DNA of 44,240 nucleotides from Escherichia phage vB_EcoS_SCS92. The notes below the pieces were generated by a model, which did no database searches, was not told the DNA's origin, and was given only the letters and a program-made list of their open reading frames with translations. Within the stretch, counting starts at the first letter, position 1. Every line of letters begins with the position of its first letter. The DNA lies in sequence record ON548432.1. The stretch is one strand, 5' to 3'. Positions 733 through 40,484 of the stretch are shown piece after piece. A program made the position numbers and the translations under genes.

Positions 733-1074
733 TTAAGACACAGTTGCTACAGTGCTGCTGGAGATAATATTACCATATGCATCGTGAACAACCACTTTAT
801 ACGTGCCTGAATCAGCGCGAGCAGTGGTGGCTTTGGTGTACGTAGCTGAGGTAGCGCCTGCAATGGCGTTGTTGTTCTTGTACCACTGGTAGGAGTATGG
901 CTCCAGACCGCCAGTTACGGTTACGGTCAGTGTCATAGTTTCCCCTGTGTTTACTGAGGTAGTACTCGCCAGCGCAGATGAGAAAGACGCGGGGGCGATA
1001 TTTGCCATATCGATTTTAGCGCCTACGGTATCGGCTGAAACACCGGTAATGCGACGTTTGATTACATCAACCAT
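733..1074 (-). CDS. Ig-like domain protein, probable virion surface/decoration protein
   Basis: 113 aa. Ig-like motif EPYSYQWYKNN...DSGTYKVVVHD. ATG at 1074 preceded by AAGGGG Shine-Dalgarno. Confidence 0.5.
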   Translation of the reverse strand: MVDVIKRRITGVSADTVGAKIDMANIAPASFSSALASTTSVNTGETMTLTVTVTGGLEPYSYQWYKNNNAIAGATSATYTKATTARADSGTYKVVVHDAYGNIISSSTVATVS

Positions 1075-1445: not shown

Positions 1446-2495
1446 TTAAGCACCGACACCAGTTACCAGGAAGGCAATCGGTACGTGCTTGCGGTCAACC
1501 ACACGGTTCCAGTTGGAGGAGTTCGCCAGGTCCTGCCAGGAAGCAGAGCGCGGGGTAGTCTCGGTGCCGTTGCCAGTGATTACTGCACTGGTGAAGCTGT
1601 AACCAAACGGATGTAGCAACCAGGTCTTACGGGTCCACAGGGTTTCAACGCCGCCGCCGTTGCCGCGGGACGCTTCGCGCTCGTATTCCAGCGGGTTGGA
1701 CGGAGAACCTTCACCGTAACCGATAGCGCCGTTGCCGAAGATGATGGAGATGAACTTACGGGTCGGGCCAGTGCCGACTACGGTCATGCTGTCGTCAACA
1801 ATCACGCGGTAGCCCTGGTAGGTGGCGAACATGGTGTTGTTGTCCGCGTCACGGATGAAGTCGATAAGCTGCTGCTTACGTGCCTGCGCATAAACGAAGC
1901 TGTGCATCGCGATAGCACCTAACACTTCACCGCCGTTACCAATCAGAGCGTCACCCATAGTCTGTGTAGCATCGATGAACGCACCGGGGTCGAAGCCCAG
2001 AGTAGCGGACACGTCAATTACCATGTCGTTCCGCTCGTGGTAGGCATCGGTAGCGGCTACGTTGTCGTTGTACAGGCCAAGCGCGGTAGCAATCAGACGG
2101 CGTTGTGCCTGACGCTGCCAGAAGTTATCCAGACGTGACGCTACGGATTGCAGCGGGTTCTGGCTGGTCAGTTCAACGGTCAAATCCGCCTGACCGAAAC
2201 CTTCGTTCAGGTACGCAACGCGCGCCATCATCTCGCCGGTCTGCACGTTACGCGGGGTGGCGATGTCCTGGTATACGTCGTTCGAGTAGTTCGGCTCGAT
2301 AGAGGTATCAATCGCTTTCCAGAAAGGAATATTAGCGACGTTGGACGGGCCGCGGGCAATCTCGGCGGCGTATGGGGTCGGGGTGAGAATACCAGACTGG
2401 AAGAACGCGGTTTTTTCTACCGGGTCCTCGGTCATATAAGACGCCAGGACCGGGATGTTGCCAGTTACGATATCGCCGATAGTGGTAATTGCCAT
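1446..2495 (-). CDS. major capsid protein
   Basis: 349 aa. Directly downstream of the scaffold gene and followed by an attenuator hairpin. Size and position are typical of an HK97-fold capsid protein; the call is by position, not by a recognised motif. Confidence 0.7.
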   Translation of the reverse strand: MAITTIGDIVTGNIPVLASYMTEDPVEKTAFFQSGILTPTPYAAEIARGPSNVANIPFWKAIDTSIEPNYSNDVYQDIATPRNVQTGEMMARVAYLNEGFGQADLTVELTSQNPLQSVASRLDNFWQRQAQRRLIATALGLYNDNVAATDAYHERNDMVIDVSATLGFDPGAFIDATQTMGDALIGNGGEVLGAIAMHSFVYAQARKQQLIDFIRDADNNTMFATYQGYRVIVDDSMTVVGTGPTRKFISIIFGNGAIGYGEGSPSNPLEYEREASRGNGGGVETLWTRKTWLLHPFGYSFTSAVITGNGTETTPRSASWQDLANSSNWNRVVDRKHVPIAFLVTGVGA

Positions 2496-3199: not shown

Positions 3200-3281
3200 A
3201 GTCAGTATGTCCCCTGGACGTTGGAATCCGGGCCACCCGGATTTACATGTCAAGAATAAATTATTCCAACATGCAAGGCAA

Positions 3282-3545
3282 CTATTCCAGAATATTCCTC
3301 ACGTAATCCTGCAACATGAACACTTTCAGTCTCAGTTGCCGTACGCATTCGGCGTTCTGAACGTCGATAGCTAAATCCTCGTCCGCGTCACTACTTGGTG
3401 GCGCCAGCTTGCACGGCGGCTGCATCATCGTCGTATCCGGGGATGGAATTGGCGTTGGCGACGGCGCGGGACTTGAGCTGCACGCGCTCAGGGTCAAAAG
3501 TGCACACGCTGCGACCTGGCGTTTTAATGTATTTAACGACTTCAC
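3282..3545 (-). CDS. o-spanin (Rz1-like outer-membrane lipoprotein)
   Basis: 87 aa. Signal peptide with lipobox-like LTLSAC, proline-rich mature part. Overlaps the 3' part of the i-spanin gene in another frame. Confidence 0.5.
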   Translation of the reverse strand: MKSLNTLKRQVAACALLTLSACSSSPAPSPTPIPSPDTTMMQPPCKLAPPSSDADEDLAIDVQNAECVRQLRLKVFMLQDYVRNILE

Positions 3546-3777
3546 GGGTAATCACCTCTGATTTCGTCTTGCCTTCGTTGTCAGCGGCGGCGGCCTTTGA
3601 TTCGTCCTGCTGCTGCCGTTGTGTTTTCTTCGCTAACTCAGCCTGCGCTTTCTGCTGTTGCTGCGAAACGAGATTCGCCCGGCCTTCGTTCCAGCCGCTG
3701 CGATACTGGTAGATGCCGTGGGCGTAAGCCAGGATGATGAAACATGCTCCTGCTACGACAGTTGCTTTAAGATTCAT
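3391..3777 (-). CDS. i-spanin (Rz-like)
   Basis: 128 aa. N-terminal transmembrane segment (VVAGACFIILAYAHGIY) followed by a Gln/Ala/Lys-rich coiled coil. AAAGGGGAAAC precedes the ATG. Confidence 0.55.
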   Translation of the reverse strand: MNLKATVVAGACFIILAYAHGIYQYRSGWNEGRANLVSQQQQKAQAELAKKTQRQQQDESKAAAADNEGKTKSEVITREVVKYIKTPGRSVCTFDPERVQLKSRAVANANSIPGYDDDAAAVQAGATK

Positions 3778-4096: not shown

Positions 4097-4125
4097 TTGC
4101 ACACACCAATATAATAGGGTACTAT
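4097..4125 (+). promoter_or_regulatory. sigma70-like promoter (TTGCAC-N17-TACTAT class) with embedded AATAG-N4-CTATT palindrome
   Basis: TTGCAC at 4097-4102, 17-bp spacer, TACTAT at 4120-4125, about 28 bp upstream of a gene with an AGGAGGTG Shine-Dalgarno. Near-identical copies at 38905, 15547(-) and 16739(-). Confidence 0.5.
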
Positions 4126-4152
4126 TCATTTAACTTAAACAGGAGGTGAAAA

Positions 4153-14074: not shown

Positions 14075-14278
14075 TTATTTCTCCTGTTTTCCAAGTCGCT
14101 TAGGTGAGCAGATAGCGCGTACCTCTGAATCGTTGGGCTTGTCACCCTGAAACAGAAAGTGCGCGTTCTCGGCGGCGCGTGCCGCTGACTGGCACGCCTC
14201 CATCGAGTAAAACGTTTCTGATGCCGCCAGGTGCATCTGGCCTGCGGACAGTACCCAGATAAATAAGATGCTGGTCAT
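14075..14278 (-). CDS. small protein with N-terminal signal peptide
   Basis: 67 aa. N-terminus MTSILFIWVLSAGQMHLAAS is hydrophobic with an AxA-like cleavage site; two Cys in the mature part. Confidence 0.4.
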   Translation of the reverse strand: MTSILFIWVLSAGQMHLAASETFYSMEACQSAARAAENAHFLFQGDKPNDSEVRAICSPKRLGKQEK

Positions 14279-14748
14279 TTGATTTTCCCGTGGTTGTCGT
14301 GAAACCCATATTTGTTCTCAGCGTCGGCCCTCGCTGCTCTTGCGGCAGAAAGGTCGTCGAAATATCCTAAATGTACATTTTTACCGTTAACCTTTATGGT
14401 CCCTTTCCATTTACCCGCACGCTGGAACCAATACACTCCAGTAACACCTGACCGGTTGTTGGCGGCTAATTTTGTGTTTCTATGGTTTTCGGATGCTGTT
14501 ACTTTCCTAAGATTGCACAAACGATTGTCACTACGGTCGTGATTTATGTGGTCTATTTGCTCCCCTGGGTGAAGTAAATCGTCGGGGTTAAACATGTCCC
14601 ATATTATTCGATGTGCGCGGTACTGCCTCTTTTCGACCTTCAACACAACATAGCCATCCCTATTCTTACACGTTACTTTTGCTGAGGTCTTCTTCCATGA
14701 AAGAATGCCGGTAGTATGGTCATAATCGAATAGTGTGTGCCATTTCAT
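14275..14748 (-). CDS. HNH homing endonuclease with AP2-type DNA-binding domain
   Basis: HNH motif IDHINHDRSDNRLCNLRKVTASENHRN and an AP2-like C-terminus (SGVTGVYWFQRAGKWKGTIKVNGKNVHLGYFDD...KYGFHDNHG). Confidence 0.8.
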   Translation of the reverse strand: MKWHTLFDYDHTTGILSWKKTSAKVTCKNRDGYVVLKVEKRQYRAHRIIWDMFNPDDLLHPGEQIDHINHDRSDNRLCNLRKVTASENHRNTKLAANNRSGVTGVYWFQRAGKWKGTIKVNGKNVHLGYFDDLSAARAARADAENKYGFHDNHGKIK

Positions 14749-15212
14749 TTGTTGTCAGCGTCCCATTTTCGGCAACCAGATTGCTCCCACCCGTACCTGC
14801 CCTTGCAGATAAGTTTGTACGACTCCACGTCACCTGTGGCCTCAGCCAGCTGTTTTGTCAGGCCCTTAACTTGCCCTGTCAGGTGCGATATGTGCTCAGA
14901 TTTCTTAATGTTGTCTTCCTGTAACTCGGCCACCAGCGACGAAGCATCACGTAACTGGTTTTTAAGTGACTGCACCTCATGCGCCAGGTCTTCGCACTGG
15001 CTGTTATTTACCTGCTGCCGTAAACTGTCTTTCAGCGCTCGTATTTCGTCATCCTTACCGGCGATATGCTGCTGTAGGTTGTGAATTACCTGCTTGACCT
15101 CATCAAGGTCGGATATCCGCACAGACACATTGAAAGATGTGACATCTTTCTTATTTACCTGCTGCCGTAGTTGGTCAATCAGGTACTCGAATACTTCGTT
15201 TTTGTTACTCAT
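14745..15212 (-). CDS. hypothetical coiled-coil protein
   Basis: 155 aa, Gln/Leu/Lys-rich with heptad-like repeats. Confidence 0.45.
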   Translation of the reverse strand: MSNKNEVFEYLIDQLRQQVNKKDVTSFNVSVRISDLDEVKQVIHNLQQHIAGKDDEIRALKDSLRQQVNNSQCEDLAHEVQSLKNQLRDASSLVAELQEDNIKKSEHISHLTGQVKGLTKQLAEATGDVESYKLICKGRYGWEQSGCRKWDADNK

Positions 15213-15397
15213 ACTACGTCTCCTACTAACCCAACCTTCATGACGCCGCGTTCACCTTTCTTGCCTGCACGAAGCCACTCACGCGCAACTTTCTCATCAG
15301 TGAACACAAATTTCGGTACGTGCTTTCCGTCGGGGGCGATAACCCACGCCGACCATACCGGGGTAACTTTAATCAAATGCTCGTTTTTAGTATTCAT
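15209..15397 (-). CDS. hypothetical protein
   Basis: Track ORF begins at a GTG at 15406; ATG at 15397 (MNTKNEHL) is more likely. Confidence 0.4.
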   Translation of the reverse strand: MNTKNEHLIKVTPVWSAWVIAPDGKHVPKFVFTDEKVAREWLRAGKKGERGVMKVGLVGDVV

Positions 15398-15515
15398 ATT
15401 CTTCACTCACTCCGTTATAGACGCCGTTGTAATCTCCGTCGCAGATGAACGGGTAGAGCATATCTTCATACTCGTCCTGCAACTCGCCTAAAGTCACTTC
15501 GCTATAATCTTTCAT
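15387..15515 (-). CDS. hypothetical 42-aa acidic protein
   Basis: ORF below the track threshold. GAGGAG Shine-Dalgarno; first gene after the promoter at 15547-15575. Confidence 0.3.
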   Translation of the reverse strand: MKDYSEVTLGELQDEYEDMLYPFICDGDYNGVYNGVSEEYEY

Positions 15516-15546
15516 CCTCTGTCTCTCCTCTCGTTTGTGTAAATGA

Positions 15547-15575
15547 ATAGTAGCCTATTCTATATTAGTGTGCAA
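15547..15575 (-). promoter_or_regulatory. sigma70-like promoter (TTGCAC-N17-TACTAT class) with AATAG-N4-CTATT palindrome
   Basis: Minus-strand reading gives CTTGCAC, a 17-bp spacer and TACTAT, about 30 bp upstream of the 15515 ATG. Confidence 0.5.
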
Positions 15576-15654
15576 GTAAATTTTATTGGTGTTTGTATTG
15601 TTGCGTCTCCTGCAATAGTCGCTTCGATTGTTGCGTTTGGTGAAATAGAACAAA

Positions 15655-15689
15655 AATGAGAAAAATGATACGCTGCTGTGTAGCAGCGT
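15655..15689 (-). terminator. rho-independent terminator
   Basis: ACGCTGCT-gtgt-AGCAGCGT stem followed on the minus strand by ATCATTTTTCTCATTTTTG. Confidence 0.55.
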
Positions 15690-15722
15690 AAGTCACTCAG
15701 TAAAATCCCAAACTATTGAACA

Positions 15723-15923
15723 TCACACTTCTGGCGGCTCGGGTAACGGCATCCAGTGCGTCACGTACTTATCGTAGTGATTCCAGAAAGGCTTTCTCCC
15801 GTCATCAGGAACGATGTAATAATCGTGTTGAACTGCGTTATTTAACGTTTCATACACCAGGAACTCTTTATCCGTACACCCATTACCCGGCAGCATCTCA
15901 CTACACTTAATCCACTCACCCAT
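15723..15923 (-). CDS. hypothetical protein
   Basis: 66-aa track ORF with a GAGGTG Shine-Dalgarno. Confidence 0.45.
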   Translation of the reverse strand: MGEWIKCSEMLPGNGCTDKEFLVYETLNNAVQHDYYIVPDDGRKPFWNHYDKYVTHWMPLPEPPEV

Positions 15924-16071
15924 ACCTCACACCTCTTTCAATCAAGGATTGCACACCAGCTTTCCACGCCCGCCATGCGAGACGCGTCTTAACGTTCAGG
16001 TACTCTTTCTTCGAACCCTTGTTAACCGGCAGACCCTCGACGACGGCCCACCGTTCGAATGCTTCTCTCAT
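15916..16071 (-). CDS. hypothetical 51-aa protein
   Basis: ORF below the track threshold; ATGA overlaps at both ends suggest translational coupling. Confidence 0.3.
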   Translation of the reverse strand: MREAFERWAVVEGLPVNKGSKKEYLNVKTRLAWRAWKAGVQSLIERGVRYG

Positions 16072-16223
16072 ACCAGAACCTCGCATTCATCCCGATACAC
16101 GAACAATAATGACCCTTTGTACTCAATCATAAAACCATAATGGTTGCTGCTGAACGCCAGAAAAACATCACCTACCGAGATACCGAAATCTATAAGCCTG
16201 CGGTCAGTTATTCGAATTCTCAT
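16068..16223 (-). CDS. hypothetical 51-aa protein
   Basis: ORF below the track threshold; ATGA overlap with the stop of the 16220-16516 gene. Confidence 0.3.
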   Translation of the reverse strand: MRIRITDRRLIDFGISVGDVFLAFSSNHYGFMIEYKGSLLFVYRDECEVLV

Positions 16224-16516
16224 TGACGGCAACCTCCCTCAGAGTCGTCGGCACGAGCATCACGATTCGATGCCGTTCTCATAAACAATTTGCCCTTACG
16301 CTGTAGCAAGTCCATCGTTACCACACCTGCACCTGACTTATTAGGGCGACGCAGTATGCTAAAGTTCCATACCCTGGCCTTTGTTACGTCTCTGGCGTTA
16401 CACACCCACAAAGCGCCATTTTCTCTTAGTTCCAGCAATTCAGAAATGTTGAAATTATTTACGGGAATAAACCCGCTAATGAACTGGCGTTCGCATTGAG
16501 GTAATTCTTCCATCAC
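16220..16516 (-). CDS. hypothetical protein
   Basis: 98-aa track ORF in the coupled early array. Confidence 0.4.
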   Translation of the reverse strand: MMEELPQCERQFISGFIPVNNFNISELLELRENGALWVCNARDVTKARVWNFSILRRPNKSGAGVVTMDLLQRKGKLFMRTASNRDARADDSEGGCRQ

Positions 16517-16704
16517 TTCGCCCCTTTGAATTTAAAATTGTTGCCGATGAGCTTCATTTCATACTCTTGGTAATACGCCGCGGAACTTAACCCGTGCTCC
16601 CTTAGTAAGCTAACGACATAAGAACTTCGATACACTGTCGATTTCTTTTCAATAATACCTAAGCTACCGTATATAGTTTTTACTAACTGACCCTTCTTAA
16701 ACAT
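16513..16704 (-). CDS. hypothetical protein
   Basis: ATG at 16704 (MFKKGQL) with a GAGGAG Shine-Dalgarno; first gene after the promoter at 16739-16767. Confidence 0.45.
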   Translation of the reverse strand: MFKKGQLVKTIYGSLGIIEKKSTVYRSSYVVSLLREHGLSSAAYYQEYEMKLIGNNFKFKGAK

Positions 16705-16738
16705 AACCACCACTCCTCTGTCTCGTTCCGATAAGTGA

Positions 16739-16767
16739 ATAGTATCCTATTATATTGGGGTGTGCAA
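16739..16767 (-). promoter_or_regulatory. sigma70-like promoter (TTGCAC-N17-TACTAT class) with AATAG-N4-CTATT palindrome
   Basis: Minus-strand reading CTTGCACaccccaatataataggaTACTAT, almost identical to the promoters at 4097 and 38905. Confidence 0.5.
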
Positions 16768-16836
16768 GAGGATAGTTACGTTGCCGTTGTGATTCTTCGG
16801 GGATGGTTGTGCCATTATTCTTATTACTTGGTAACT

Positions 16837-16860
16837 AAAGGGCAGGCCTTAAGCCTGCCC
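16837..16860. other. GC-rich hairpin GGGCAGGC-cttaa-GCCTGCCC in the divergent early intergenic region
   Basis: Read directly. Lies in a roughly 370-bp ORF-poor region that also has GCTTAAC repeats at about 17015-17050. Confidence 0.5.
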
Positions 16861-17138
16861 AATAATCGTTACATTTTTACGGTTGCGAATCTACGGCACT
16901 TTAAGAAAATCAGATACTTAAGAGATATGCTGTCGATGAGAATAGAGCTTGCCCAGGGCAACCGGAGATACTTAGGAAGGAAAGTTACAACAATTCTCGT
17001 GTTCAGTAAGCCTGCTGCTTAACCCTTTGCTTAACGCACGGGTTAAGCATTCTTACAAGGTGAACAGGAATCAAAGTAACTAAGATATAGAAGCACCTTA
17101 AACGAAGATTTTCTTAATGTCAATAGGTGTGATTATGT

Positions 17139-17167
17139 TTGATTTCCCATTATTCGCAATGTATACT
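17139..17167 (+). promoter_or_regulatory. sigma70-like promoter (TTGATT-N17-TATACT) for the plus-strand replication operon
   Basis: Hexamers with a 17-bp spacer about 30 bp upstream of the ATG at 17200. Confidence 0.45.
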
Positions 17168-17199
17168 TGGTTTCGTTAACTGATAATGAGGGCTTTGGA

Positions 17200-17370
17200 A
17201 TGACACAGAATGAAGTAGCTGAGCGTATCGGGGTTACCCGTCGTACGCTGAATAACTGGTTAAAGAGTGGGAAGTTCCCGGATTGTTGTATTCGCATTAT
17301 GGGCCGCAGGCAGCCTGGTACGTTTGACCCGGAGAAAGTGGAAGCGTGGATTAAGGAGAACGTGAAATGA
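17200..17370 (+). CDS. HTH DNA-binding protein (AlpA/excisionase-like family)
   Basis: MTQNEVAERIGVTRRTLNNWLKSGKFP is a typical HTH. GAGGG Shine-Dalgarno before ATG 17200; the track begins at a TTG at 17167. Confidence 0.6.
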   Translation: MTQNEVAERIGVTRRTLNNWLKSGKFPDCCIRIMGRRQPGTFDPEKVEAWIKENVK

Positions 17371-17600
17371 CAGAGTTTCAGTCACGCGTATTTACGGCAG
17401 TCGTTTCATTAACACGTAAAAAAGGGTCGTGCAGCGTTATCGACTTGCGCCGTAGTTATTTTAAGTACTATAGTTCCGCCATTATTGAAGGGTCGTTGAA
17501 GGTACTGGTTAAATCTGGTGTCGTGAAAAATGTTGGCGGGAAATATAGTGCTGTTGCCGAAGTTCGCGGAATGACCGCTACTTTAGAAGACCTGGAATAA
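17367..17600 (+). CDS. hypothetical protein with C-terminal LEDLE acidic motif
   Basis: 77 aa; ATGA overlap with the upstream gene; C-terminus ...TATLEDLE. Confidence 0.45.
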   Translation: MTEFQSRVFTAVVSLTRKKGSCSVIDLRRSYFKYYSSAIIEGSLKVLVKSGVVKNVGGKYSAVAEVRGMTATLEDLE

Positions 17601-17617
17601 AAGAAAGCCCCGACGCG

Positions 17618-19900
17618 GTGAACGCCGAGGCCAAATTACTTGCTGAAGGAATATACAACATGTCCGATGTAATTTTATCCTACTCGTGGTCACGCCGCAA
17701 CGCGCGGGCGGGGAAAAAGGATATAAATGTCAGAACCGCACACACGGCAACACTGGACGACCTGAAAGAGTTAATCCAGCCGCTCGATGCCGTTCGTGAC
17801 GGGATTAACCCCAAGACTGCGCCCGGTTATATCACGGCCGCGTGCGATTCTACACACAGCACCGTAAAAGACCCGGAAACCGGTGGCTTTAAACAAGCGC
17901 GTAAAGGCTTCTTCTATCGCTGTGACGCGTCTGTGAGCAAATCGTCGCTGGCGTATCTGGACTTCGACAGTGCAACACCGGAAGAGTACCAGGAAGCGGT
18001 GCGCCTGGTTAATCGCAGCCGCCGGGCGATGTGTCTCTACACCACGGCATCACATACCGATGAGGTCGCCCGCTTTCGCGTCGTCATGCCGCTGGCCCGC
18101 CCAGTTGAGGGTGGTGATATCATCCGTGTTCGTCATGGGTTGCTGGAGCACTTCTTCAAAGGCATGGGTGCGGACCGCAGCGGGTTCACTCTGTCGCAGC
18201 CGATGTACCTGCCGCCGGTCGGCGCTACCGTTATCTGGTCGCGCCGCAACGACCTGATCGACCCGAACGAGTTACTGGAAGGCATCCCAGCCGTTGACGT
18301 TAGCAGCGCATCGGATTACCAGATACCGGAAGAACTGCGCACCGCGTTTACAGACGCGTTTGAAGCACTGGCGTTTGAGTACGGCGGCGTCATGACGCCG
18401 CGCGGCCTTAAGATGCCAGCCACACCGGAACATGCCGAAAACTACAGCGACCCGACACCGCGCCCGGACGACTTCCTGCTGTGCTTCCCGCGCGAGGGGT
18501 ATGAAGCGCCAAACGTAACCATGATTCACGACACAGACATTACGGCGACAGAAGGCCTGTCACCGAAAGAGGTGTGGAAGTACGCGTGCGATGCGACCGG
18601 GCTGCCGTTCAGTGAAGTCGCAGAGGCCATCGGTTGGGGGGCGCGTGAATCTGTCTCATGCAGCCTCGACGACCTGGAAGACGACGAGGACTCAGAGGAG
18701 GACGAGTTACCGGAGCCGGTAAAGGCTGATTTCGTCGTTGAGGGGTACATGCCGTCGGATTGTATCTGGGGTATCGTCGGAGAATCGGGCACGTACAAAT
18801 CATTCTATACGCTGGGGATGATGTACCTGAGCGCCGCCGGATACCGGTTTGCAGGGGCTGACACCCAGCGTTGTCACCATTTCTATATCGACGGCGAGGG
18901 TGGGGCAGCCACACGTACACGTATTGATGCGCTCGCGGCTAAATACGGCGAGGAAGGTAAAGATTATGTACATGTCATCGATATGGGCGAAGTCGGCAAA
19001 CTTAAAAGCCTGATTAAGTTAATGCGCGAAACTGCTGGCGACGAGCCAATTGGCATGGTTGCGTTCGACACCCTTAACCAGACCCTGGCACTGACGATTG
19101 ATAAGTTCGACGAGAACAGTTCATCAACAGCAATCGGCATGGGTAAAGTTATCGCCATTCTGAAAGAAGTACGCGATGCAACTAAAGCCGCTGTCGGTGT
19201 CGTTCACCATACTCCGAAGGGCGGAAAGAAAGCCCGCGGCAGTGGGGCGCTGTATGCGGGTGTTGATGTGGAACTGACAATCGAACGTGCAACCGACCGT
19301 CAGATAAACGTATATCACTCGAAATTCAAGCACGGGCCTCAGCAGAAGACGGTTGGCATGGTGCTGGAGTCGGTACAGTTCCGTGAAGCGCCGCCGCCTA
19401 AAGAATACCGAGCGGTTGAGTTCCTGGGTAGCACAGAGGAATACGGCACAATCGTAAACCTGGACCTGCCTGAACCACACAAGGCGCTTGTGTTGATGCC
19501 GTGGGGTTTCGAGCCGTTCAAAACTGACGAGGAGAAAGAGCGGGAAGAAGGGTTGACGAAAGAAGGTAAGAAAAAAGTAAAGGAAGAAGTTAAACGCGGC
19601 AGGGATGAAGTAAGGAAGGAGTCAATACTTTCGGCACTGGAAGACCTGCAACAGTCAGATGACACAGGTCGCGGTTTTACTCAGCAGCAGATAGTGGCTC
19701 GTTCCGGTGACTTCTCTGTGACTAACACCCATCTTGATAAAATGTTGAAAGATGGAGAACTAATGCTTGGTTGCGATGCTAACGGCGAAGTAGTACCGAG
19801 AACATATCGTATACCCGAAAGAATAGGGGATAGATTAAGGCCGAAGACACTATACGAACCAAATGAGATGCTGGTGGTGACAGAGGAGGATTTGGAATAG
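17618..19900 (+). CDS. primase-helicase (RecA-fold ATPase with N-terminal primase-like domain)
   Basis: Walker A GIVGESGTYKS and Walker B-like VAFDTLNQ in the C-terminal half, large N-terminal domain, C-terminal TEEDLE. Likely ATG at 17660; the track starts at a GTG. Confidence 0.6.
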   Translation: MNAEAKLLAEGIYNMSDVILSYSWSRRNARAGKKDINVRTAHTATLDDLKELIQPLDAVRDGINPKTAPGYITAACDSTHSTVKDPETGGFKQARKGFFYRCDASVSKSSLAYLDFDSATPEEYQEAVRLVNRSRRAMCLYTTASHTDEVARFRVVMPLARPVEGGDIIRVRHGLLEHFFKGMGADRSGFTLSQPMYLPPVGATVIWSRRNDLIDPNELLEGIPAVDVSSASDYQIPEELRTAFTDAFEALAFEYGGVMTPRGLKMPATPEHAENYSDPTPRPDDFLLCFPREGYEAPNVTMIHDTDITATEGLSPKEVWKYACDATGLPFSEVAEAIGWGARESVSCSLDDLEDDEDSEEDELPEPVKADFVVEGYMPSDCIWGIVGESGTYKSFYTLGMMYLSAAGYRFAGADTQRCHHFYIDGEGGAATRTRIDALAAKYGEEGKDYVHVIDMGEVGKLKSLIKLMRETAGDEPIGMVAFDTLNQTLALTIDKFDENSSSTAIGMGKVIAILKEVRDATKAAVGVVHHTPKGGKKARGSGALYAGVDVELTIERATDRQINVYHSKFKHGPQQKTVGMVLESVQFREAPPPKEYRAVEFLGSTEEYGTIVNLDLPEPHKALVLMPWGFEPFKTDEEKEREEGLTKEGKKKVKEEVKRGRDEVRKESILSALEDLQQSDDTGRGFTQQQIVARSGDFSVTNTHLDKMLKDGELMLGCDANGEVVPRTYRIPERIGDRLRPKTLYEPNEMLVVTEEDLE

Positions 19901-19926
19901 GTAAAAAGAAAGGGGCTTTAAGCCCC
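19901..19926 (-). terminator. terminator hairpin between the convergent primase and HTH genes
   Basis: GGGGCT-tta-AGCCCC stem; the minus-strand RNA is followed by TTCTTTTTAC. The stem overlaps the HTH gene stop. Confidence 0.45.
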
Positions 19927-20133
19927 TTCACCTAACGCCAACCACTTGGCGTCTACTTCAAGCACTTCCGCCAGTTTAAACAGCGTCGCCGGGCGGACAT
20001 CCTGAGTTACCCCAAGTGCAAGCTGGTTAATCGCGCCCTGGGAGACACCGGCCAGGACAGCCAGACGGCGCTGGGAGATGCCGAGTTCTTTACGGCGTTG
20101 TTCTACACGAATGCCTAGTTCAGATGGTTGCAT
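19918..20133 (-). CDS. XRE-family (Cro/CI-type) HTH transcriptional regulator
   Basis: 71 aa. QRRKELGISQRRLAVLAGVSQGAINQLALG is a classic HTH_XRE motif. AAGGAG Shine-Dalgarno. Lone minus-strand gene with a divergent promoter region. Confidence 0.8.
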   Translation of the reverse strand: MQPSELGIRVEQRRKELGISQRRLAVLAGVSQGAINQLALGVTQDVRPATLFKLAEVLEVDAKWLALGEGA

Positions 20134-20164
20134 GTCAGCTACTCCTTAGTTAGTTGATATGTGA

Positions 20165-20193
20165 ATAGTACCATATTAATTATTTTAGAAAAG
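20165..20193 (-). promoter_or_regulatory. extended -10 promoter (TGnTACTAT) for the HTH regulator gene
   Basis: Minus-strand reading TGGTACTAT about 25 bp upstream of the AAGGAG Shine-Dalgarno; weak -35. Confidence 0.4.
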
Positions 20194-20197
20194 CCCA

Positions 20198-20226
20198 TTG
20201 ACATGTGAATAGTTCGCTATTATAGT
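20198..20226 (+). promoter_or_regulatory. near-consensus sigma70 promoter TTGACA-N17-TATAGT with AATAG-N4-CTATT palindrome in the spacer
   Basis: TTGACA at 20198-20203, TATAGT at 20221-20226, 32 bp upstream of the ATG at 20258. A weaker tandem copy (TTGATA ... TAATTA) lies at 20154-20182. Confidence 0.6.
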
Positions 20227-20257
20227 TAACCCATACCAAACGAGAGGTGAGAAACAA

Positions 20258-20758
20258 ATGTTAGAACAATTCTTAAAATTACTGGAACGTTTCGTAGTTG
20301 CACATGAACTGATTGCTGCGAACAGTGCGAAACAGTCAGCACAAGTTGCAGCGCCGTTAGAAGTAGAGACGGTAGTGTATACCAAAGAAGCGGTAGCTGA
20401 GTGCGAAAAAGAAGCAACAAAAGAAATCCCTGTTGAAGGTGAAGACATCGTTGACGCTAAACCAGCAGAAGAAGAGAAGCCGAAACGCAAGCCGCGTAAA
20501 GCTAAAGTAGAGGAGCCGACTCCAGAACCAGAAGAAGAGAAAGAAGAGGTCGATTACCAGTCTCTTCGTGACCAGATTCAGGCTATCGACGATGCAATTA
20601 ACGAAGGTCCGAGCGATGCCGCGTGCGACGATTCCGATGAACTGCTGGAGGAGTTCACCGGTAAGAAAATGAAGATTGCCGCGATTAAAGACGAAGACCT
20701 GGCTGAATACCTGAAACGCCTGACGGCGATTAAGAACAAGTATTTCGAAGAAGAATAA
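20258..20758 (+). CDS. highly acidic hypothetical protein (first gene of an early operon)
   Basis: 166 aa, Glu/Asp-rich with a short Lys-rich patch. GAGAGGTGAG Shine-Dalgarno. Followed by the hairpin GCGGCC-tccg-GGCCGC. Confidence 0.5.
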   Translation: MLEQFLKLLERFVVAHELIAANSAKQSAQVAAPLEVETVVYTKEAVAECEKEATKEIPVEGEDIVDAKPAEEEKPKRKPRKAKVEEPTPEPEEEKEEVDYQSLRDQIQAIDDAINEGPSDAACDDSDELLEEFTGKKMKIAAIKDEDLAEYLKRLTAIKNKYFEEE

Positions 20759-20801
20759 TTTATCTGGCGGCCTCCGGGCCGCTTTAACAGAGGGTCGTAA
20801 T

Positions 20802-21074
20802 ATGATTTACCAACTCTACCGAGGTATTGACCGACGGGATAACACAGAGGCGTTGTGGCTGTTGCGTGCGCCGTCCGGCGCGCACCAGATGGAAGAGATG
20901 GCCTACCTCGGCAAAGTACCGAAGCCGAAAGATATAGGCCGTCACCTGTCGCAGATTAAGCGCACGACATTCGTTAAAAGTGACTTTTATGTCTTCGAGT
21001 CGATGTATAGCTGGGCGATGCATTGTGACCACAAGACACGACATTTAATTGACCAGTGGGAGGTCAGGGTATGA
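20802..21074 (+). CDS. hypothetical protein
   Basis: 90-aa track ORF with a Shine-Dalgarno-like AGAGGG. Confidence 0.45.
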   Translation: MIYQLYRGIDRRDNTEALWLLRAPSGAHQMEEMAYLGKVPKPKDIGRHLSQIKRTTFVKSDFYVFESMYSWAMHCDHKTRHLIDQWEVRV

Positions 21075-22312
21075 TTCTAAAAGAACGAGGCGGCAATAAT
21101 GATGTACACGCCTTACTGTCACCGTCAGGCGCTAAAAAGTGGCTAGTCTGCGCTGCGTCGCTGGCGTGTGAAAAAGATATCCCTAACACGTCGGGTAAAG
21201 CCGCTGTATTAGGAACCGCCTGCCACACCATAGCTGAGGTCCATCTCAATGCCTATATACGCGGCACTGCGTTGCCGTTGGAGCGTGAAGTCGGCGCTTA
21301 CGTACTGGATGAAGGCAAAGGTCAGATTAAGGCGCTAATCAGCCCGATGAAAGGCGCGGTACTGATTACGGCGGACATGATTGAGCAGGTGCGCAAGTAC
21401 ACCGACTACTGCAAAGCGATTATAGACGTAGCGACTTACGCCAAGCTGGAAATGCGTGTTAATCTTACTGAGGTATTGCATCCGGGGTATGAAGGCGTTG
21501 AGACGTTCGGAACTGCTGACCTTGTTGCCATACAGGAACTGGCTAACACCGACGAACACATGCTTATCATCTGCGACCTGAAAACCGGGCGGCATCGTGT
21601 CGAAGCGAAAGAAAACAAGCAGCTTATGCTTTATGCTCTCGGCGTTTATCGCCGACTCAAGAGACGGTATAGCATAACAACCGTTCGACTGGTCATCTTC
21701 CAGCCGTACGCTGGCGGTGCATCGGAGTGGGACATCTCGGTTGAAGGTCTGGAACTGTTCGCTAAGTTTGCACAGAAACGGGCGCTGTTGGCTCTTGATG
21801 CCTATTTCCGGGGTAAAAAGAACCTGAAAGCGTCGGACTTCAAGCCGTCGGTAGATGGTTGTCAGTGGTGTCGGTTCTCTGAACAATGCGCAGCGCGTAC
21901 AAAAACCGTTAACGCGGGGCTGGCGGAAGAACTGGAGGACGACTTTGCACTTGAGCTTACGCCAGAGCAACTCGTAGCTGAGTATGAGAAGTTGCCGTTG
22001 TTGCGCCAGCACATCGACAAGGTTGAGAAAGCTATGGCTGCTACGTTACATTCCGGTAAGAAAGTGCCGGGTTACAACTTGGTTGAAGGACGCCCGGGTA
22101 ATCGTGCGTGGAAAGATACCGATGCAGTATCAGAAGTCTACGGTGACAAGCTGACAAAAGGAGTTCTTATGACACCGACCGAAGCTGTTAAAGTCGTACC
22201 GGAAGAAGAACTGAAAGACTTCATTACACGTAAGCCTGGGGCGCCATGCGTCGCAACGGCAGACGACAAACGTCCTGAGTGGAATCAGGTGACCGAGGAG
22301 GATTTAGAATGA
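21071..22312 (+). CDS. PD-(D/E)xK exonuclease with Cas4-like Cys cluster (DUF2800-like)
   Basis: D...ICDLKTG nuclease motif and C-terminal CQWCRFSEQC cysteine cluster. Likely ATG at 21071 with a GGAGG Shine-Dalgarno. C-terminus QVTEEDLE. Confidence 0.65.
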   Translation: MILKERGGNNDVHALLSPSGAKKWLVCAASLACEKDIPNTSGKAAVLGTACHTIAEVHLNAYIRGTALPLEREVGAYVLDEGKGQIKALISPMKGAVLITADMIEQVRKYTDYCKAIIDVATYAKLEMRVNLTEVLHPGYEGVETFGTADLVAIQELANTDEHMLIICDLKTGRHRVEAKENKQLMLYALGVYRRLKRRYSITTVRLVIFQPYAGGASEWDISVEGLELFAKFAQKRALLALDAYFRGKKNLKASDFKPSVDGCQWCRFSEQCAARTKTVNAGLAEELEDDFALELTPEQLVAEYEKLPLLRQHIDKVEKAMAATLHSGKKVPGYNLVEGRPGNRAWKDTDAVSEVYGDKLTKGVLMTPTEAVKVVPEEELKDFITRKPGAPCVATADDKRPEWNQVTEEDLE

Positions 22313-22512
22313 TTCAAGTAAATGAAATGCCCACAGATAAAGATTTTGTGATGATATGGCGCTGGGGCGGTTATATCCATTCGGAATCGTTTACGTTCCT
22401 GAACGGCACGATGGTGCGATACAACCATGTGGAGGATGAATTCGAACCCGTTGATATGAATGATTTCGAGAACATAGTCCGTATTGCGAAATTTTATTTG
22501 ACACCTGAATAG
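22309..22512 (+). CDS. hypothetical protein
   Basis: ATG at 22309 with an AGGAGG Shine-Dalgarno, overlapping the nuclease stop. Confidence 0.4.
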   Translation: MIQVNEMPTDKDFVMIWRWGGYIHSESFTFLNGTMVRYNHVEDEFEPVDMNDFENIVRIAKFYLTPE

Positions 22513-22526
22513 TTAGCTATTATAGT
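22498..22526 (+). promoter_or_regulatory. sigma70 promoter TTGACA-N17-TATAGT with AATAG-N4-CTATT palindrome
   Basis: TTGACAcctgaatagttagctatTATAGT, overlapping the stop of the upstream gene, 60 bp before the ATG at 22586. Confidence 0.55.
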
Positions 22527-22585
22527 TCTAATCACTGGCCGGGCAGCTTCCCGGAGTAAACGAAACTTAAAAGCGAGAAATTAAG

Positions 22586-23212
22586 ATGGGTATTAAACTG
22601 AATCTGCGTAAAGTAAACACTGCATGGGTTAACGTATTCGAACGTGCTGCCGACTCTGAGGACGAAAACCGGTCAATTATTAAGGGTAAATACAGCGTTA
22701 CGTTCATCATGCAGCCTGACCACCCTCAAATCGACGCGCTTTATGACACCGTTTACGCTGGAGTTGAACAAGCAATCGGTGCCGCCGCTGCCGAGAAATG
22801 GATGAAAGCCAACTACGGTGTAGACCACCACGCGGACAAGTGCGTGATACGTGACCTGGCAATGCGAGACAATCCTATTGAGGATTTTGAAGAAGGTCTG
22901 TATTTCCGGGCCACTACACCGTCACAGCCGGTGATTATGACATCGGCTAAAGGTGAAAAACAAACAGAGCCTGATTTCAACATCGACGGCGAACAGAATG
23001 AAGGCGAGCAGGTATATAGCGGATGTGTCGCAAACGTATCTGTAGAGTTATGGTGCAGCCAAAGATTGAAAAACCTGTGCGCTACCATCCTGGCGATCAA
23101 GTATATGGGTGAAGGTAAAGCGTTCGGCGGCTCCAGTGTAGTAGCGAGCACTGACGACCTGGAAGACGACGAAGAAGATGAAGCACCGCGTCGCGAACGT
23201 CGCCGCCGTTAA
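22586..23212 (+). CDS. ssDNA-binding protein (T7 gp2.5-like / DUF2815-like), putative
   Basis: N-terminal KLNLRKVNTAWVNVFE...KGKYSVTF pattern, acidic DDLEDDEEDE stretch near the C-terminus, and position between the nuclease and the polymerase. Confidence 0.5.
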   Translation: MGIKLNLRKVNTAWVNVFERAADSEDENRSIIKGKYSVTFIMQPDHPQIDALYDTVYAGVEQAIGAAAAEKWMKANYGVDHHADKCVIRDLAMRDNPIEDFEEGLYFRATTPSQPVIMTSAKGEKQTEPDFNIDGEQNEGEQVYSGCVANVSVELWCSQRLKNLCATILAIKYMGEGKAFGGSSVVASTDDLEDDEEDEAPRRERRRR

Positions 23213-38904: not shown

Positions 38905-38933
38905 TTGCACACCCCAATATAATAGGGTACTAT
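38905..38933 (+). promoter_or_regulatory. sigma70-like promoter (TTGCAC-N17-TACTAT class) with AATAG-N4-CTATT palindrome, driving the opposite-strand island
   Basis: CTTGCACaccccaatataatagggTACTAT, 28 bp upstream of the ATG at 38962. Confidence 0.55.
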
Positions 38934-38961
38934 TCACCAGTAACTTACTGAGGGTATAATT

Positions 38962-39353: not shown

Positions 39354-40484
39354 ATGGCCCGGAAGAAAATAACCGACGAACAGTTGCAGGAAGAATTGAA
39401 CGCCGGGATGAAGAATATCGATATCGCCCGTAAATACGGAATCTCAGACCGCGTTATTCGTATCCGTAAAGCGAAGCTGGCTAAGAAAGGTGTAGGCCAC
39501 GGGCGTGACGTTAGCCACCTTGTCCCAGACGGCTACAAGATTAAAGGGACGTCGTCCCTGGTGGACGAGTTCGGCAACACTAAGTTGCAATGGGTTAAGA
39601 CCGACGCTGATGCCGAACGTCAGGTTGAATTGATGAAAGCCGTAATAGAGGGCATGAAGTCAGAGATTACGCCCGTTGCGCCTGTTAAACCGGCACGAGC
39701 CAAACGTGACGATAAACTACTCAATCTTTACACGGTATCTGATTTCCATCTCGGTATGCTGGCATGGGCCGATGAGAGCGGCGACGACTGGGACATGAAG
39801 ATTGCAGAAGACCTGTTCTCTCGGTGGTTCGACGCGGCGTTTCAGAAAGCACCGGATGCAGGAACAGGAGTTATTAACCTGCTTGGCGACCTTGCACACT
39901 TCGATAGTCTGGACGCCGTTACCCCGGCAAGTGGTCATGTTCTCGATGCGGACACGCGCTACCAGAAACTGGTTCGCTACATGATTCGTATGGTCCGCCG
40001 TGTTGTCGATATGGCCCTTGTTAAGCATAAAAATGTTCGCTTGCTTATCGTACAAGGGAACCACGACGAAAGCGGAATGATTTGGTTAGCTGAGATGTTC
40101 AGTACGCTGTACGACAATGAGCCTCGTGTGTTCGTCGATACGTCGCCGGATGTTTACAAGATGGTGCAACACGGCAAAACGACGCTGTTCTTTACACACG
40201 GGCATAAATGCCGGTTTGAGGTGGTCGAACCCATTATGATAGCTAAGTTCAGAAAAGCATTTGGCGAAAGCGAGTACAGTTACGCACATGTCGGTCATCT
40301 CCACCATCAAAAGATTGTAGAAAGTAGGAATATGGTAGTGGAACAACATCGCACTCTCGCGGCGAAAGATGCATATGCTTCCCGCGGTGGGTGGATGTCT
40401 AAGAGGTCCGCTAATGTCATAACCTATAGTTCAGAGTTCGGGGAAGTAGGTAGGCTTTCGATCTCACCGGAGATGCTAAGATGA
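39354..40484 (+). CDS. HTH-fused metallophosphoesterase (calcineurin-like)
   Basis: 376 aa. N-terminal HTH-like region (NIDIARKYGISDRVIRIRKAKL) and C-terminal metallophosphoesterase motifs (DFHLG, LLGDLAHFD, VQGNHDE, FTHGH, HVGHLHH). Confidence 0.65.
   Translation: MARKKITDEQLQEELNAGMKNIDIARKYGISDRVIRIRKAKLAKKGVGHGRDVSHLVPDGYKIKGTSSLVDEFGNTKLQWVKTDADAERQVELMKAVIEGMKSEITPVAPVKPARAKRDDKLLNLYTVSDFHLGMLAWADESGDDWDMKIAEDLFSRWFDAAFQKAPDAGTGVINLLGDLAHFDSLDAVTPASGHVLDADTRYQKLVRYMIRMVRRVVDMALVKHKNVRLLIVQGNHDESGMIWLAEMFSTLYDNEPRVFVDTSPDVYKMVQHGKTTLFFTHGHKCRFEVVEPIMIAKFRKAFGESEYSYAHVGHLHHQKIVESRNMVVEQHRTLAAKDAYASRGGWMSKRSANVITYSSEFGEVGRLSISPEMLR

Follow-up and report, generated by a model that had tools for sequence, protein, structure and literature searches.

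What is the function of the DNA between the two divergent early operons of the Kagunaviruses? In the stretch of DNA analysed here (44,240 nucleotides, referred to below as the window), whose coordinates are identical to those of Escherichia phage NTEC3 (OK539620.1; Kagunavirus, Guernseyvirinae), positions 16768-17138 are flanked by the minus-strand promoter of the leftward early operon (TTGCAC-N17-TACTAT) and by the rightward promoter (TTGATT-N17-TATACT) of the replication operon (HTH gene, phrog_5169 gene and helicase-primase gene), both of which are present as proposed in the preliminary description of this DNA. That description interpreted repeats in the region as iterons of a replication origin and mentioned a non-coding RNA as an alternative. 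The intergenic DNA is 70-95% identical across 447 phage records, and the core is carried by 375 phage records; our main comparison set comprised 33 distinct relatives from two genera (Kagunavirus and Jerseyvirus) plus subtypes. Judging from sequence comparison, we propose, with a probability of about 60%, that the region carries an undescribed non-coding RNA gene of ~255 nt on the minus strand, equipped with its own promoter and terminator (Table 1). A conserved leftward promoter, strand-specific covariation, a leftward terminator and the lack of a conserved open reading frame all speak for this alternative.

The region is annotated in GenBank as protein-coding (UDG73278.1, 71 aa), and a longer version of the same frame is annotated in Bas73. 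The 95-aa open reading frame mentioned in the preliminary description (16735-17022) indeed exists and, as read from the sequence, is not preceded by a ribosome-binding site. However, stop codons and 1-nt indels interrupt this frame in the majority of relatives, among them the close Kagunaviruses L018, L019, L027 and L028 as well as every Jerseyvirus sequence; its product matched no PHROG family, and most related records have no annotation here. On the minus strand, open reading frames do not exceed 30 aa and are located in variable or module-specific parts, and no reading frame is conserved on either strand. Because of the broken frame and the missing PHROG family, we rejected the coding interpretation, the probability of which is practically negligible.

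The predicted promoter of the RNA possesses a -35 hexamer TTGACA in 33 of 33 distinct relatives, a -10 hexamer TAAGGT, TAAGTT or TAAGCT, and a spacer of 17 nt in 32 relatives and 18 nt in the remaining one. The -10 hexamer is weak, matching the consensus at three of six positions, and for this reason the promoter was missed by a consensus scan. The GenBank record of Salmonella phage Jersey annotates a same-strand promoter at this site, albeit with other hexamers. The -35 elements of this promoter and of the rightward replication-operon promoter are 15 bp apart in a back-to-back arrangement, and a 45-bp block across both of them is invariant in the relatives. At the other end of the predicted RNA, the strong GC hairpin GGGCAGGC-cttaa-GCCTGCCC reported earlier is present, although it spans 16840-16860 and does not start at 16837. 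It was scored as terminator-like on the minus strand only (hairpin energy -19.9 kcal/mol) and is followed by a short U-tract (UUUAGUU). Four relatives carry a compensatory variant of the stem (GGGCAGGU/ACCUGCCC), while the tail TTTAGTTACC is invariant. In Jersey-type phages, which are devoid of the 3' 'module B', no terminator was scored, and the transcript may therefore run into the leftward operon there.

Table 1. Features of the intergenic region and its borders (coordinates of the window; features of the RNA are predicted).
Feature	Coordinates	Strand	Remarks
ORF judged spurious	16807-17022	+	GenBank CDS UDG73278.1 (71 aa); 95-aa version from 16735
Leftward early operon promoter box	16735-16767	-	33-nt box, three copies in the genome; left boundary of the predicted RNA, outside the RNA
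Predicted non-coding RNA, ~255 nt	16833-17088	-	From promoter to terminator; both ends inferred
Predicted sigma-70 promoter of the RNA	17095-17123	-	-35 TTGACA 17123-17118, 17-nt spacer, -10 TAAGGT 17100-17095; predicted start ~17088
5' rod, ~100 nt, five stacked helices	16983-17081	-	Comparative fold
Rod helix H1	17081-17076 with 16988-16983	-	
Rod helix H2	17073-17068 with 16996-16991	-	
Rod helix H3	17066-17061 with 17005-17000	-	
Rod helix H4	17056-17052 with 17010-17006	-	
Rod helix H5 (apical)	17049-17040 with 17025-17016	-	Contains GCTTAAC copies
Conserved unpaired linker UUUCCUUCCUAAGUAUCUCCGG / CCUUCCUAAGUAUCU	16962-16982	-	Has the first CYUAAGUAUCU (direct repeat 16966-16976)
Second hairpin S2	16930-16961	-	11 pairs, 98.9% of cells paired
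Second copy of CUUAAGUAUCU / UAAGUAUCU (direct repeat)	16912-16922	-	3' of S2; conserved in most relatives
3' segment GAUUUUCUUAAAGUGCCGUAGAUUCGCAACCGUAAAAAUGUAACGAUUAUU, part of module B	16861-16911	-	Sequence-conserved
Intrinsic terminator, leftward	16833-16860	-	Stem GGGCAGGC/GCCUGCCC 16860-16840, then UUUAGUU 16839-16833
Rightward replication-operon promoter	17139-17167	+	TTGATTTCCCATTAT invariant in relatives

The predicted RNA folds with a minimum free energy of -78 kcal/mol (z = -4.29 compared to dinucleotide shuffles). Covariance model R1 has a single match in the window and matches all 33 relatives on the minus strand (E values of 1e-16 to 1e-48). The same five-helix architecture was obtained when the Kagunavirus and Jerseyvirus groups were folded separately. 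In the MAFFT alignment A1, which was not fitted to a model, 99.5% of 956 cells are paired (30-50% with slid partners), and three pairs show double changes. The corresponding values are 96.2% (34-45% with slid partners) for the Kagunavirus-only alignment A2, with double changes in five pairs (36 cells), and 93.8% (37-47%) for the model-fitted alignment A3, with double changes in 16 pairs (145 cells). The phylogeny behind these comparisons is shallow (two genera plus subtypes), and many of the double-change cells descend from few events. From the alignments we counted about a dozen independent covariation events; the number of covarying pairs did not differ significantly from a shuffle control (101/500 for A2, 74/500 for A3, 282/500 for A1). 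Examples from the unfitted alignment are two pairs of H4 (AU18/GU13/GC2 and GC23/AU8/UA2) and a pair of H2 (CG18/UA15). In H3, GUUCA/UGAAC of one group corresponds to GUUUCA/UGAAAC of the other, i.e., an insertion on both sides, and in H5 four pairs have double changes inside Kagunavirus alone. The latter helix also accounts for most of what had been noticed as GCTTAAC repeats. The three copies (17017-17023 and 17029-17035 on the plus strand, 17042-17048 on the minus strand) are present; the apical hairpin has copy 1 in one arm and copy 3 in the other, and the two arms co-vary in relatives (TGCTTAA, TGTTTAA, CGCTTAA, CCGCC); copy 2 occupies a loop position and is not conserved.

Single-sequence folding does not discriminate between the two strands (-78 vs -75.4 kcal/mol), so that the strand can be told apart by the comparative G·U bias only. 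The minus-strand reading has 124 G·U cells and 93.8% of cells paired, compared to 19 G·U cells and 86.3% for the plus-strand reading, and the same bias is seen in the unfitted alignment. Covariation thus appears to maintain a secondary structure on the strand that is predicted to be transcribed.

Besides the rod, the predicted RNA contains parts that are conserved in sequence. The linker is nearly invariant in both genera, yet unpaired in every prediction. It harbors one of the two AGATACTTA(A/G)G direct repeats, which were found at 16912-16922 and 16966-16976 as described earlier, with no further exact copies in the window. The pentamer UAUCU occurs four times in the RNA sense in the intergenic region of NTEC3 (p ~0.006) and is weak elsewhere; as the shared UAUCU copy is part of a homologous segment, it does not represent independent evidence. 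In S2, four pairs vary by G·U-compatible changes only (UG21/CG12, UA23/UG10, GU32/GC1, AU18/GU15). An alternative short hairpin within S2 (16961-16949, followed by GCUCUAUUCU) was scored as terminator-like in the window, in L022 and in phage Jersey. The 3' segment is almost identical among the E. coli and Salmonella phages that have it, and in ORH001, DUEC01 and L052 it is joined to an unrelated 5' head. A shorter signature, ..CUGAU..UGCCGUAG.., was recognized by eye in other tail types.

In other Kagunaviruses, RNA heads of unrelated sequence occupy this site, leftward promoters are found in three other cassette types, and at least four unrelated rods could be distinguished. ORH001 and L052 have a leftward TTGAAA-N18-TATAAT (11/12) and the same terminator as the window, whereas the K1ind2 head has a leftward TTGACA-N16-TAAAAT (11/12). 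In the KMB36 head, TTGACT-N17-TAAGCT is combined with a UUCG hairpin that is followed by a U-rich tail, and the L022 type has a compound hairpin of -32.6 kcal/mol followed by UUUU. The heads of KMB36 and fPoEco01 have a similar fold and different sequences. The neighbouring genes do not follow these exchanges: in KMB36 and ORH001 the central regions are unrelated, although the N-terminal regions of the helicase-primase are 100% identical (182 aa compared) and the HTH proteins 97% identical, whereas NTEC3 and Jersey have the core in common with only 57% identity of the helicase-primase. The HTH protein (HTH_17) is 81-88% identical across all lineages.

No known RNA family was found at this locus. 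Rfam 15 gave no match at E ≤1 over 15500-18500; with permissive filters, the best match of a 361-nt query was Hrs12 (20 bits compared to a threshold of 70), which is at chance level only. None of the Rfam families, which include 6S RNA, tmRNA, known phage motifs and cis-regulatory leaders, reached its gathering threshold, and a scan for tRNA and tmRNA genes found none. Positions 16833-17130 have no homology in 5,426 complete E. coli genomes, which means that in sequence the predicted RNA neither duplicates nor imitates an RNA of the host. Scans of metagenomes, IMG/VR and GTDB for the conserved motifs retrieved only Guernseyvirinae-type contigs of ~44 kb and one contaminated bacterial assembly; with matches confined to Guernseyvirinae, no deeper covariation can be gained. 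In the literature on Guernseyvirinae, we found no paper on an RNA, a promoter map or an origin, and the sole Kagunavirus RNA-seq paper (phage K1B4; reads PRJNA939978 / PRJCA028359) reports gene-level data for annotated genes only.

Several phage RNAs bear a general resemblance to the predicted one. The lambda OOP, P22 Sar and P4 CI RNAs are made by the host polymerase from early regions; each is antisense to an adjacent gene, and their length is ~70-80 nt, with P4 CI RNA larger once processed. Like the RNA proposed here, they are short non-coding transcripts of an early/regulatory region of a tailed phage, with their own sigma-70-type promoter and intrinsic terminator; however, the latter is ~255 nt long with a 100-nt rod, has no conserved gene opposite to it, and shows neither sequence nor Rfam similarity to them. 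An early promoter drives the pRNA of Bacillus phage phi29 (~170 nt), a component of the packaging motor in phi29-like podoviruses with protein-primed genomes. This RNA is likewise highly structured, acts as an RNA rather than as a message and is conserved by covariation with little sequence identity, but Guernseyvirinae belong to the siphoviruses and have ordinary terminase genes, and no similarity was detected.

Could the region nevertheless be an origin of replication? An iteron-type origin it is probably not. Iteron origins and the ssi sites of RSF1010, which are single-stranded DNA hairpins (the RepA helicase of RSF1010 belongs to the AAA_25 family), similarly combine repeats and hairpins with a neighbouring AAA_25 (RepA-like) helicase gene. 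However, an array of at least three direct repeats of ~17-22 bp in regular phase is not present: Tandem Repeats Finder detected no tandem array (none at score ≥30), no direct-repeat family has more than two copies or exceeds 13 nt, and no DnaA box with ≤1 mismatch was found in the region. Neither is a repeat conserved in the manner of a protein-binding site, nor is the element co-inherited with its would-be initiator protein, as the KMB36/ORH001 and NTEC3/Jersey comparisons indicate. The repeats behind the earlier proposal were thus in part hairpin arms: GCTTAAC copies 1 and 3 vary jointly and copy 2 lacks conservation, while the AGATACTTARG copies, only two in number, are conserved. GCTTAAC occurs 12 times in the window compared to 6.6 expected, and hence is not a rare word by itself, although three copies within 32 nt form a cluster. 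Counted singly, the short repeats are close to chance level, whereas their conservation is far above it.

Helicase-primase might still initiate replication here in another way, via hairpins of minus-strand single-stranded DNA or by transcription-activated or RNA-primed opening. The cumulative GC skew has its global minimum at ~17 kb, the 40-mers with the highest AT content in the region (17085-17155, 25-27.5% GC) are below the first percentile of the genome, the helicase-primase gene with its AAA_25 domain adjoins the region, and DNA polymerase I and helicase-primase form a T7-like set in this phage (a PDB sequence search for the primase type of the latter gave no informative match). Furthermore, hairpins of single-stranded DNA can accommodate G·T as well and are therefore compatible with the observed wobbles. 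The T7 primary origin, T4 oriF/oriG and ColE1 RNA II similarly combine promoters at an AT-rich stretch, a divergent point of replication/transcription and a structured transcript next to replication genes. However, the skew is confounded by gene orientation, as its switch coincides exactly with the orientation switch, and the AT-rich 40-mers coincide with the two promoters; both features are equally expected from divergent transcription with back-to-back promoters. In contrast to promoter-dependent or RNA-primed origins, the predicted transcript ends at a terminator instead of entering an unwinding element, a promoter for an antisense regulator was not found, and the element does not co-vary with helicase-primase; unrelated heads next to identical helicase-primase N-terminal regions argue against a cognate origin. 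Nor does a DNA hairpin need an upstream promoter and a downstream terminator on exactly the structured strand. We therefore regard an origin as decidedly improbable, although, more speculatively, the RNA could prime or license an origin for the helicase-primase and Pol I replisome. A cis-acting leader, in which the predicted promoter serves as a second, upstream promoter of the leftward operon and the structured RNA as an attenuation or antitermination element controlling the passage of polymerase through the terminator 16860-16833 and later ones into the early, lysis and head genes, is also unlikely. The order of promoter, structured RNA, terminator and operon would fit such a function, read-through is expected in Jersey-type phages, where no terminator was scored in the interval from the core to the operon promoter, and the alternative hairpin of S2, terminator-like in three lineages, could be a switch. 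Yet a strong promoter belonging to the leftward operon itself (one of the three copies of the box) lies directly downstream of the terminator, and no cis-regulatory family of Rfam matched. HK022 put RNA (~70 nt, two stem-loops) must fit the host RNA polymerase and is therefore conserved; put and lambda nut are also stem-loop RNAs situated just after an early promoter and before a terminator and operon, and the resemblance to put appears to be one of gene order only. Here, the 5' domain is swapped between otherwise near-identical phages that have the same left operon start and polymerase-facing context, which is hard to reconcile with an RNA obliged to contact host RNA polymerase. Finally, the region might act purely as DNA, with AGATACTTARG (two copies), AGTTAC/GTAACT and the invariant block around both -35 hexamers as operators for the HTH_17 protein or host factors at the divergent early promoters, and no functional RNA. 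The similarity of the HTH protein in all lineages, the invariance of the block and the distance of 54 bp (about five helical turns) between the AGATACTTARG copies are in line with this. Operators, however, leave the compensatory long-range complementarity and the strand-specific G·U bias unexplained, and the central region is replaced wholesale despite a near-identical HTH protein; we consider regulation at the DNA level alone very unlikely.

If the locus is a non-coding RNA gene, as we favour, host sigma-70 RNA polymerase would start at TTGACA-N17-TAAGGT (17123-17095), back-to-back with the replication-operon promoter, read leftward across the region and stop at the intrinsic terminator 16860-16833, before reaching the leftward early operon's own promoter. 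The transcript, whose synthesis and exact ends we infer, would fold into the five-helix rod of ~100 nt, followed by the unpaired CCUUCCUAAGUAUCU linker, the second hairpin, the second UAAGUAUCU and the conserved 3' segment. It would probably represent a new family of phage sRNAs. Our best guess is that it is a trans-acting early RNA which uses its conserved unpaired motifs and the 3' segment to bind a host or phage protein or an mRNA, with the exchangeable rod as a specificity or decoy domain. A duplex search with two conserved unpaired segments against all 71 translation-initiation regions of the phage revealed no significant target. The HNH endonuclease gene at 40481 gave the best duplex (-24.3 kcal/mol), but this value was reached by 2 of 30 shuffles; furthermore, the gene is mobile and not conserved, and the RNA residues involved are not conserved in Jerseyvirus, so this target was rejected. 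More speculatively, and with low probability, the RNA could be a modular early effector in which the 3' segment and terminator stay constant, whereas conflict between phage and host puts the exchangeable 5' rod under diversifying selection; the rod might, for example, sequester a host defence or RNA-binding protein.

Jerseyvirus and Kagunavirus are among the most often isolated phages of Salmonella and E. coli and are used in biocontrol and therapy. If the predicted RNA exists, an early non-coding RNA gene that is structured and conserved has been overlooked in at least 375 deposited genomes, and its swappable 5' domain would mark a hotspot for the exchange of modules. The annotation of UDG73278.1 and similar CDSs would then have to be corrected, and the locus would caution that repeats and GC skew alone are insufficient to call this region an origin. 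The RNA would further provide a clean model of phage RNA function in small, virulent and engineerable phages, one of which (Bas73) belongs to the BASEL collection. Should the modular effector proposal prove true, the locus would be an RNA-based counter-defence cassette in phages widely used for therapy and biocontrol.

The window corresponds, with unchanged coordinates, to Escherichia phage NTEC3 (OK539620.1; Kagunavirus, Guernseyvirinae). The intergenic region lies at the main divergence point of this genome. To its left, minus-strand genes occupy 16704 to 1, small early genes coming first and genes for lysis, terminase and head following; to its right, the replication operon starts at 17200 and encodes an HTH_17 DNA-binding protein, a phrog_5169 protein, an AAA_25 helicase-primase, a nuclease, DNA polymerase I, a methyltransferase and a second helicase. 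Among phage records, 447 match the 495-bp intergenic region (70-95% identity) and 375, of which 326 are from Salmonella phages, match its 180-nt core alone; no sequence similar to the RNA region (16833-17130) was found in 5,426 complete E. coli genomes. Relatives drawn from GenBank, IMG/VR, metagenomes and GTDB include 33 distinct sequences that carry the core. Alignments split the region into six parts (A-F). NTEC3-type and many Salmonella phages have part B; Jersey, Shelanagig and ER11 lack it, and L018 and L022 carry another module in its place. The region probably represents a new family of structured small RNAs encoded by phages.

Features of the region and related elements (positions in the window unless a relative is named)
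Feature	Position	Strand	Remark or basis
Part A			promoter box of left operon
Part B	16776-16911		includes GC hairpin
Parts C-E (core)	16914-17094		in 33/33 distinct sequences
Part F			invariant ~45-bp block, two promoters back-to-back
Predicted RNA promoter, -35 TTGACA	17123-17118	-	sequence, conservation; 17-nt spacer
Predicted RNA promoter, -10 TAAGGT	17100-17095	-	sequence, conservation
Rod of five helices (H1-H5)	17081-16983	-	RNAalifold
Second hairpin (S2)	16961-16930	-	RNAalifold
UUGCC-CUG-GGCAA hairpin	16949-16961; L022, 3438-3450; Jersey, 1540-1552	- (window)	
GUAACUUCAAGUUAC hairpin	Jersey, ~1670-1691		
GC hairpin	16840-16860		
GCTTAAC	17017, 17029; 17042	+; -	
AGATACTTA(A/G)G direct repeats	16912, 16966		
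Flanking promoters	16739-16767; 17139-17167		leftward; rightward
33-nt promoter box	4097-4129; 16735-16767; 38905-38937	+; -; +	
GTTGCCGTTG	103, 16780, 21271, 21991, 25014(-), 26201, 36273, 43510(-)		
CDS UDG73278.1 (GenBank)	16807-17022	+	
Other annotated CDSs	Bas73, 3234-3554; ORH001, 1531-1710 and 1798-1899; DUEC01, 758-910		

RNAalifold, applied separately to the Kagunavirus and Jerseyvirus groups, gave one common predicted architecture, a rod followed by the hairpin S2, with energies of -41.9 (minus strand) vs -34.8 (plus strand) and -48.3 vs -39.7 kcal/mol in the two groups. Of the 956 pair cells in the plain MAFFT alignment of the 33 sequences, 99.5% hold standard pairs, and only 30-50% are paired if the 3' partner is slid by 1-3 columns. 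One H4 pair is GC in 23 sequences, AU in 8 and UA in 2; another is AU (18), GU (13) or GC (2), and an H2 pair is CG (18) or UA (15). The two genera differ in H3, GUUCA/UGAAC against GUUUCA/UGAAAC. The apical hairpin H5 consists of the GCTTAAC copies that had been described as repeats; its arms vary jointly (UGCUUAA/UUAAGCA, UGUUUAA/UUAAACA, CGCUUAA/UUAAGCG, CCGCC/GGCGG), with double changes at four pairs within Kagunavirus alone. A covariance model trained on 18 sequences of Kagunavirus recovers every Jerseyvirus copy (E 1e-16 to 1e-21) and finds a single site in the window. The alignment derived from this model is fitted to it and hence biased towards structure; there, pairing holds in 93.8% of cells, compared with 37-47% for slid partners, and double changes occur in 16 pairs (145 cells). 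The sequences belong to two genera and a few subtypes, and pair cells over-count events; we put the number of independent events, compensatory or wobble-compatible, at about a dozen. A shuffle control on the number of covarying pairs was not significant.

In most Jersey-type copies the 5' leader holds GUAACUUCAAGUUAC, a small hairpin which competes with H1 for the AAGUUAC arm and is absent in ER11 and Kagunavirus. The short hairpin UUGCC-CUG-GGCAA, followed by GCUCUAUUCU, was scored as terminator-like in three lineages. It cannot form together with the longer S2 fold, and it might act as a switch or provide another 3' end (giving an RNA of ~150 nt).

G·U on the minus strand (A·C on the plus strand) was found in 124 cells and the reverse case in 19, with 93.8% pairing on the minus strand vs 86.3% on the plus strand. 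This bias is equally clear on the unfitted alignment, where S2 has the pairs UG21/CG12, UA23/UG10, GU32/GC1 and AU18/GU15, and one H4 pair has GU13. Single-sequence folding did not separate the strands. The minus strand, on which the structure lies, is the one that the conserved leftward promoter would transcribe. This promoter has TTGACA in 33/33 relatives, a -10 element TAAGGT (18), TAAGTT (14) or TAAGCT (1), and a spacer of 17 nt in 32/33 and 18 nt in 1/33; in the record of Salmonella phage Jersey, annotators independently marked a promoter on the same strand at this site. As the -10 element is weak (3/6 consensus matches, with T1, A2 and T6 retained), the promoter is not listed in a consensus scan of the window. 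At the other end, the GC hairpin (-19.9 kcal/mol) with UUUAGUU scores as a terminator on the minus strand only. Its stem shows the compensatory variant GGCAGGU/ACCUGCC in four relatives, and its tail TTTAGTTACC is invariant among relatives. The predicted RNA from promoter to terminator is ~255 nt long (MFE -78 kcal/mol, z = -4.3). Across relatives, the terminator loop (16848-16852) is found in either orientation with the stem kept (CTTAA and TTAAG in RNA sense, also TTAGG and TTTAG).

That the leftward transcript is the unit under selection is argued most strongly by Kagunaviruses with other cassettes at the site, among which the covariance model has no match. These core-less phages keep a leftward promoter and ~200 nt without conserved ORF, in most cases with a terminator-like hairpin. 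ORH001, DUEC01 and L052 have TTGAAA-N18-TATAAT (11/12) and, as in NTEC3, the 3' segment of module B (the 3' module with the GC hairpin) plus its terminator; K1ind2 has TTGACA-N16-TAAAAT (11/12) and an L022-type tail; KMB36 has TTGACT-N17-TAAGCT and a GGUGCC-UUCG-GGCACC hairpin before a U-rich tail. The tail type of L022, fPoEco01 and Ivi is a compound hairpin (-32.6 kcal/mol) followed by UUUU. The heads (5' parts) of KMB36 and fPoEco01 have a common hairpin-plus-rod predicted fold with differing helix sequences, and heads and tails are freely combined among cassettes. In f18SE, SS3e and SE2, both 3' modules stand in tandem upstream of the core (module B with its terminator, then the Jersey-type module), and the intergenic region is ~120 nt longer.

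A protein gene at 16807-17022 was ruled out: in the majority of 24 aligned relatives the frame is broken by stop codons or by indels of 1 nt, as it is in the close Kagunaviruses L018, L019, L027 and L028 and in every Jerseyvirus aligned, and it matches no PHROG family. Other hypothetical proteins are annotated inside the region in GenBank (Bas73_0055, two in ORH001, one in DUEC01). Given the lack of conservation of the NTEC3 frame, all of them are probably artefacts of annotation.

The GC hairpin, the GCTTAAC trio, the direct repeats, the flanking promoters and the 95-aa ORF of the preliminary description are all present. Of its two readings, the non-coding RNA is favoured by the comparative evidence; the iteron origin is not supported. 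Short repeat words occur at about chance level by count, no tandem array was found, and direct-repeat families are limited to two copies at most. The conservation of the region, unlike these counts, is beyond chance. Three observations speak for an origin of replication: replication genes adjoin the region, cumulative GC skew has its minimum at ~17 kb, and 17085-17155 holds the most AT-rich 40-mers. Against it, GC skew and gene orientation switch at one and the same place, the two promoters make up the AT-rich stretch, and neither iterons nor DnaA boxes were found in the region. The most telling evidence against it is that KMB36 and ORH001 have identical helicase-primase N-terminal regions (100% over 182 aa compared), HTH proteins 97% identical and the same flanking promoters, but unrelated central regions of ~300 nt; conversely, NTEC3 and Jersey have the core in common, yet helicase-primase identity between them is only 57%. 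An origin would be expected to move together with its cognate initiator, unlike this element. The promoter block itself may still hold an origin activated by transcription.

Over 1-44240, cumulative GC skew has a single global minimum (16-17 kb) and a broad maximum near 29-30 kb, at the next change of gene orientation. The 33-nt box TTGCACACCCCAATATAATAGGrTACTATTCAC has three copies in the window, each ahead of a small-gene block; the copies resemble a promoter class that is strong and early. The 10-mer GTTGCCGTTG has eight copies (0.15 expected from shuffles), the majority within ORFs and with non-conserved flanks; one lies 12 nt upstream of the -35 element of the leftward operon promoter. 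A Jersey-type core copy is also present on a contig of a Bacteroidota assembly (NZ_JACVEL010000022.1, Taishania pollutisoli CZZ-1 scaffold22, 18,987 bp) that is collinear with window 14079-22818, most likely phage contamination. Two linear records break within the RNA region ('templet', NC_073180.1, at the record end; 'pink', NC_073217.1, 5-52), probably reflecting an arbitrary choice of start in circularly permuted genomes.

It is in assigning a function that the argument is weak. The RNA matches no Rfam family, no paper on it was found, and no significant duplex with phage translation-initiation regions emerged from a search. Three features are the likeliest to matter: the CCUUCCUAAGUAUCU linker, which is unpaired and nearly invariant, the second UAAGUAUCU, which lies 3' of S2 and, with its copy in the linker, makes up the direct repeats when these are read as RNA, and the 3' segment, conserved in sequence. 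Our preferred reading is a trans-acting early RNA that would bind a protein or mRNA through these features, the rod being an exchangeable domain. At the RNA level the main rival is action in cis, as a leader or in antitermination; it is most plausible for phages of the Jersey type, which have no scored terminator.
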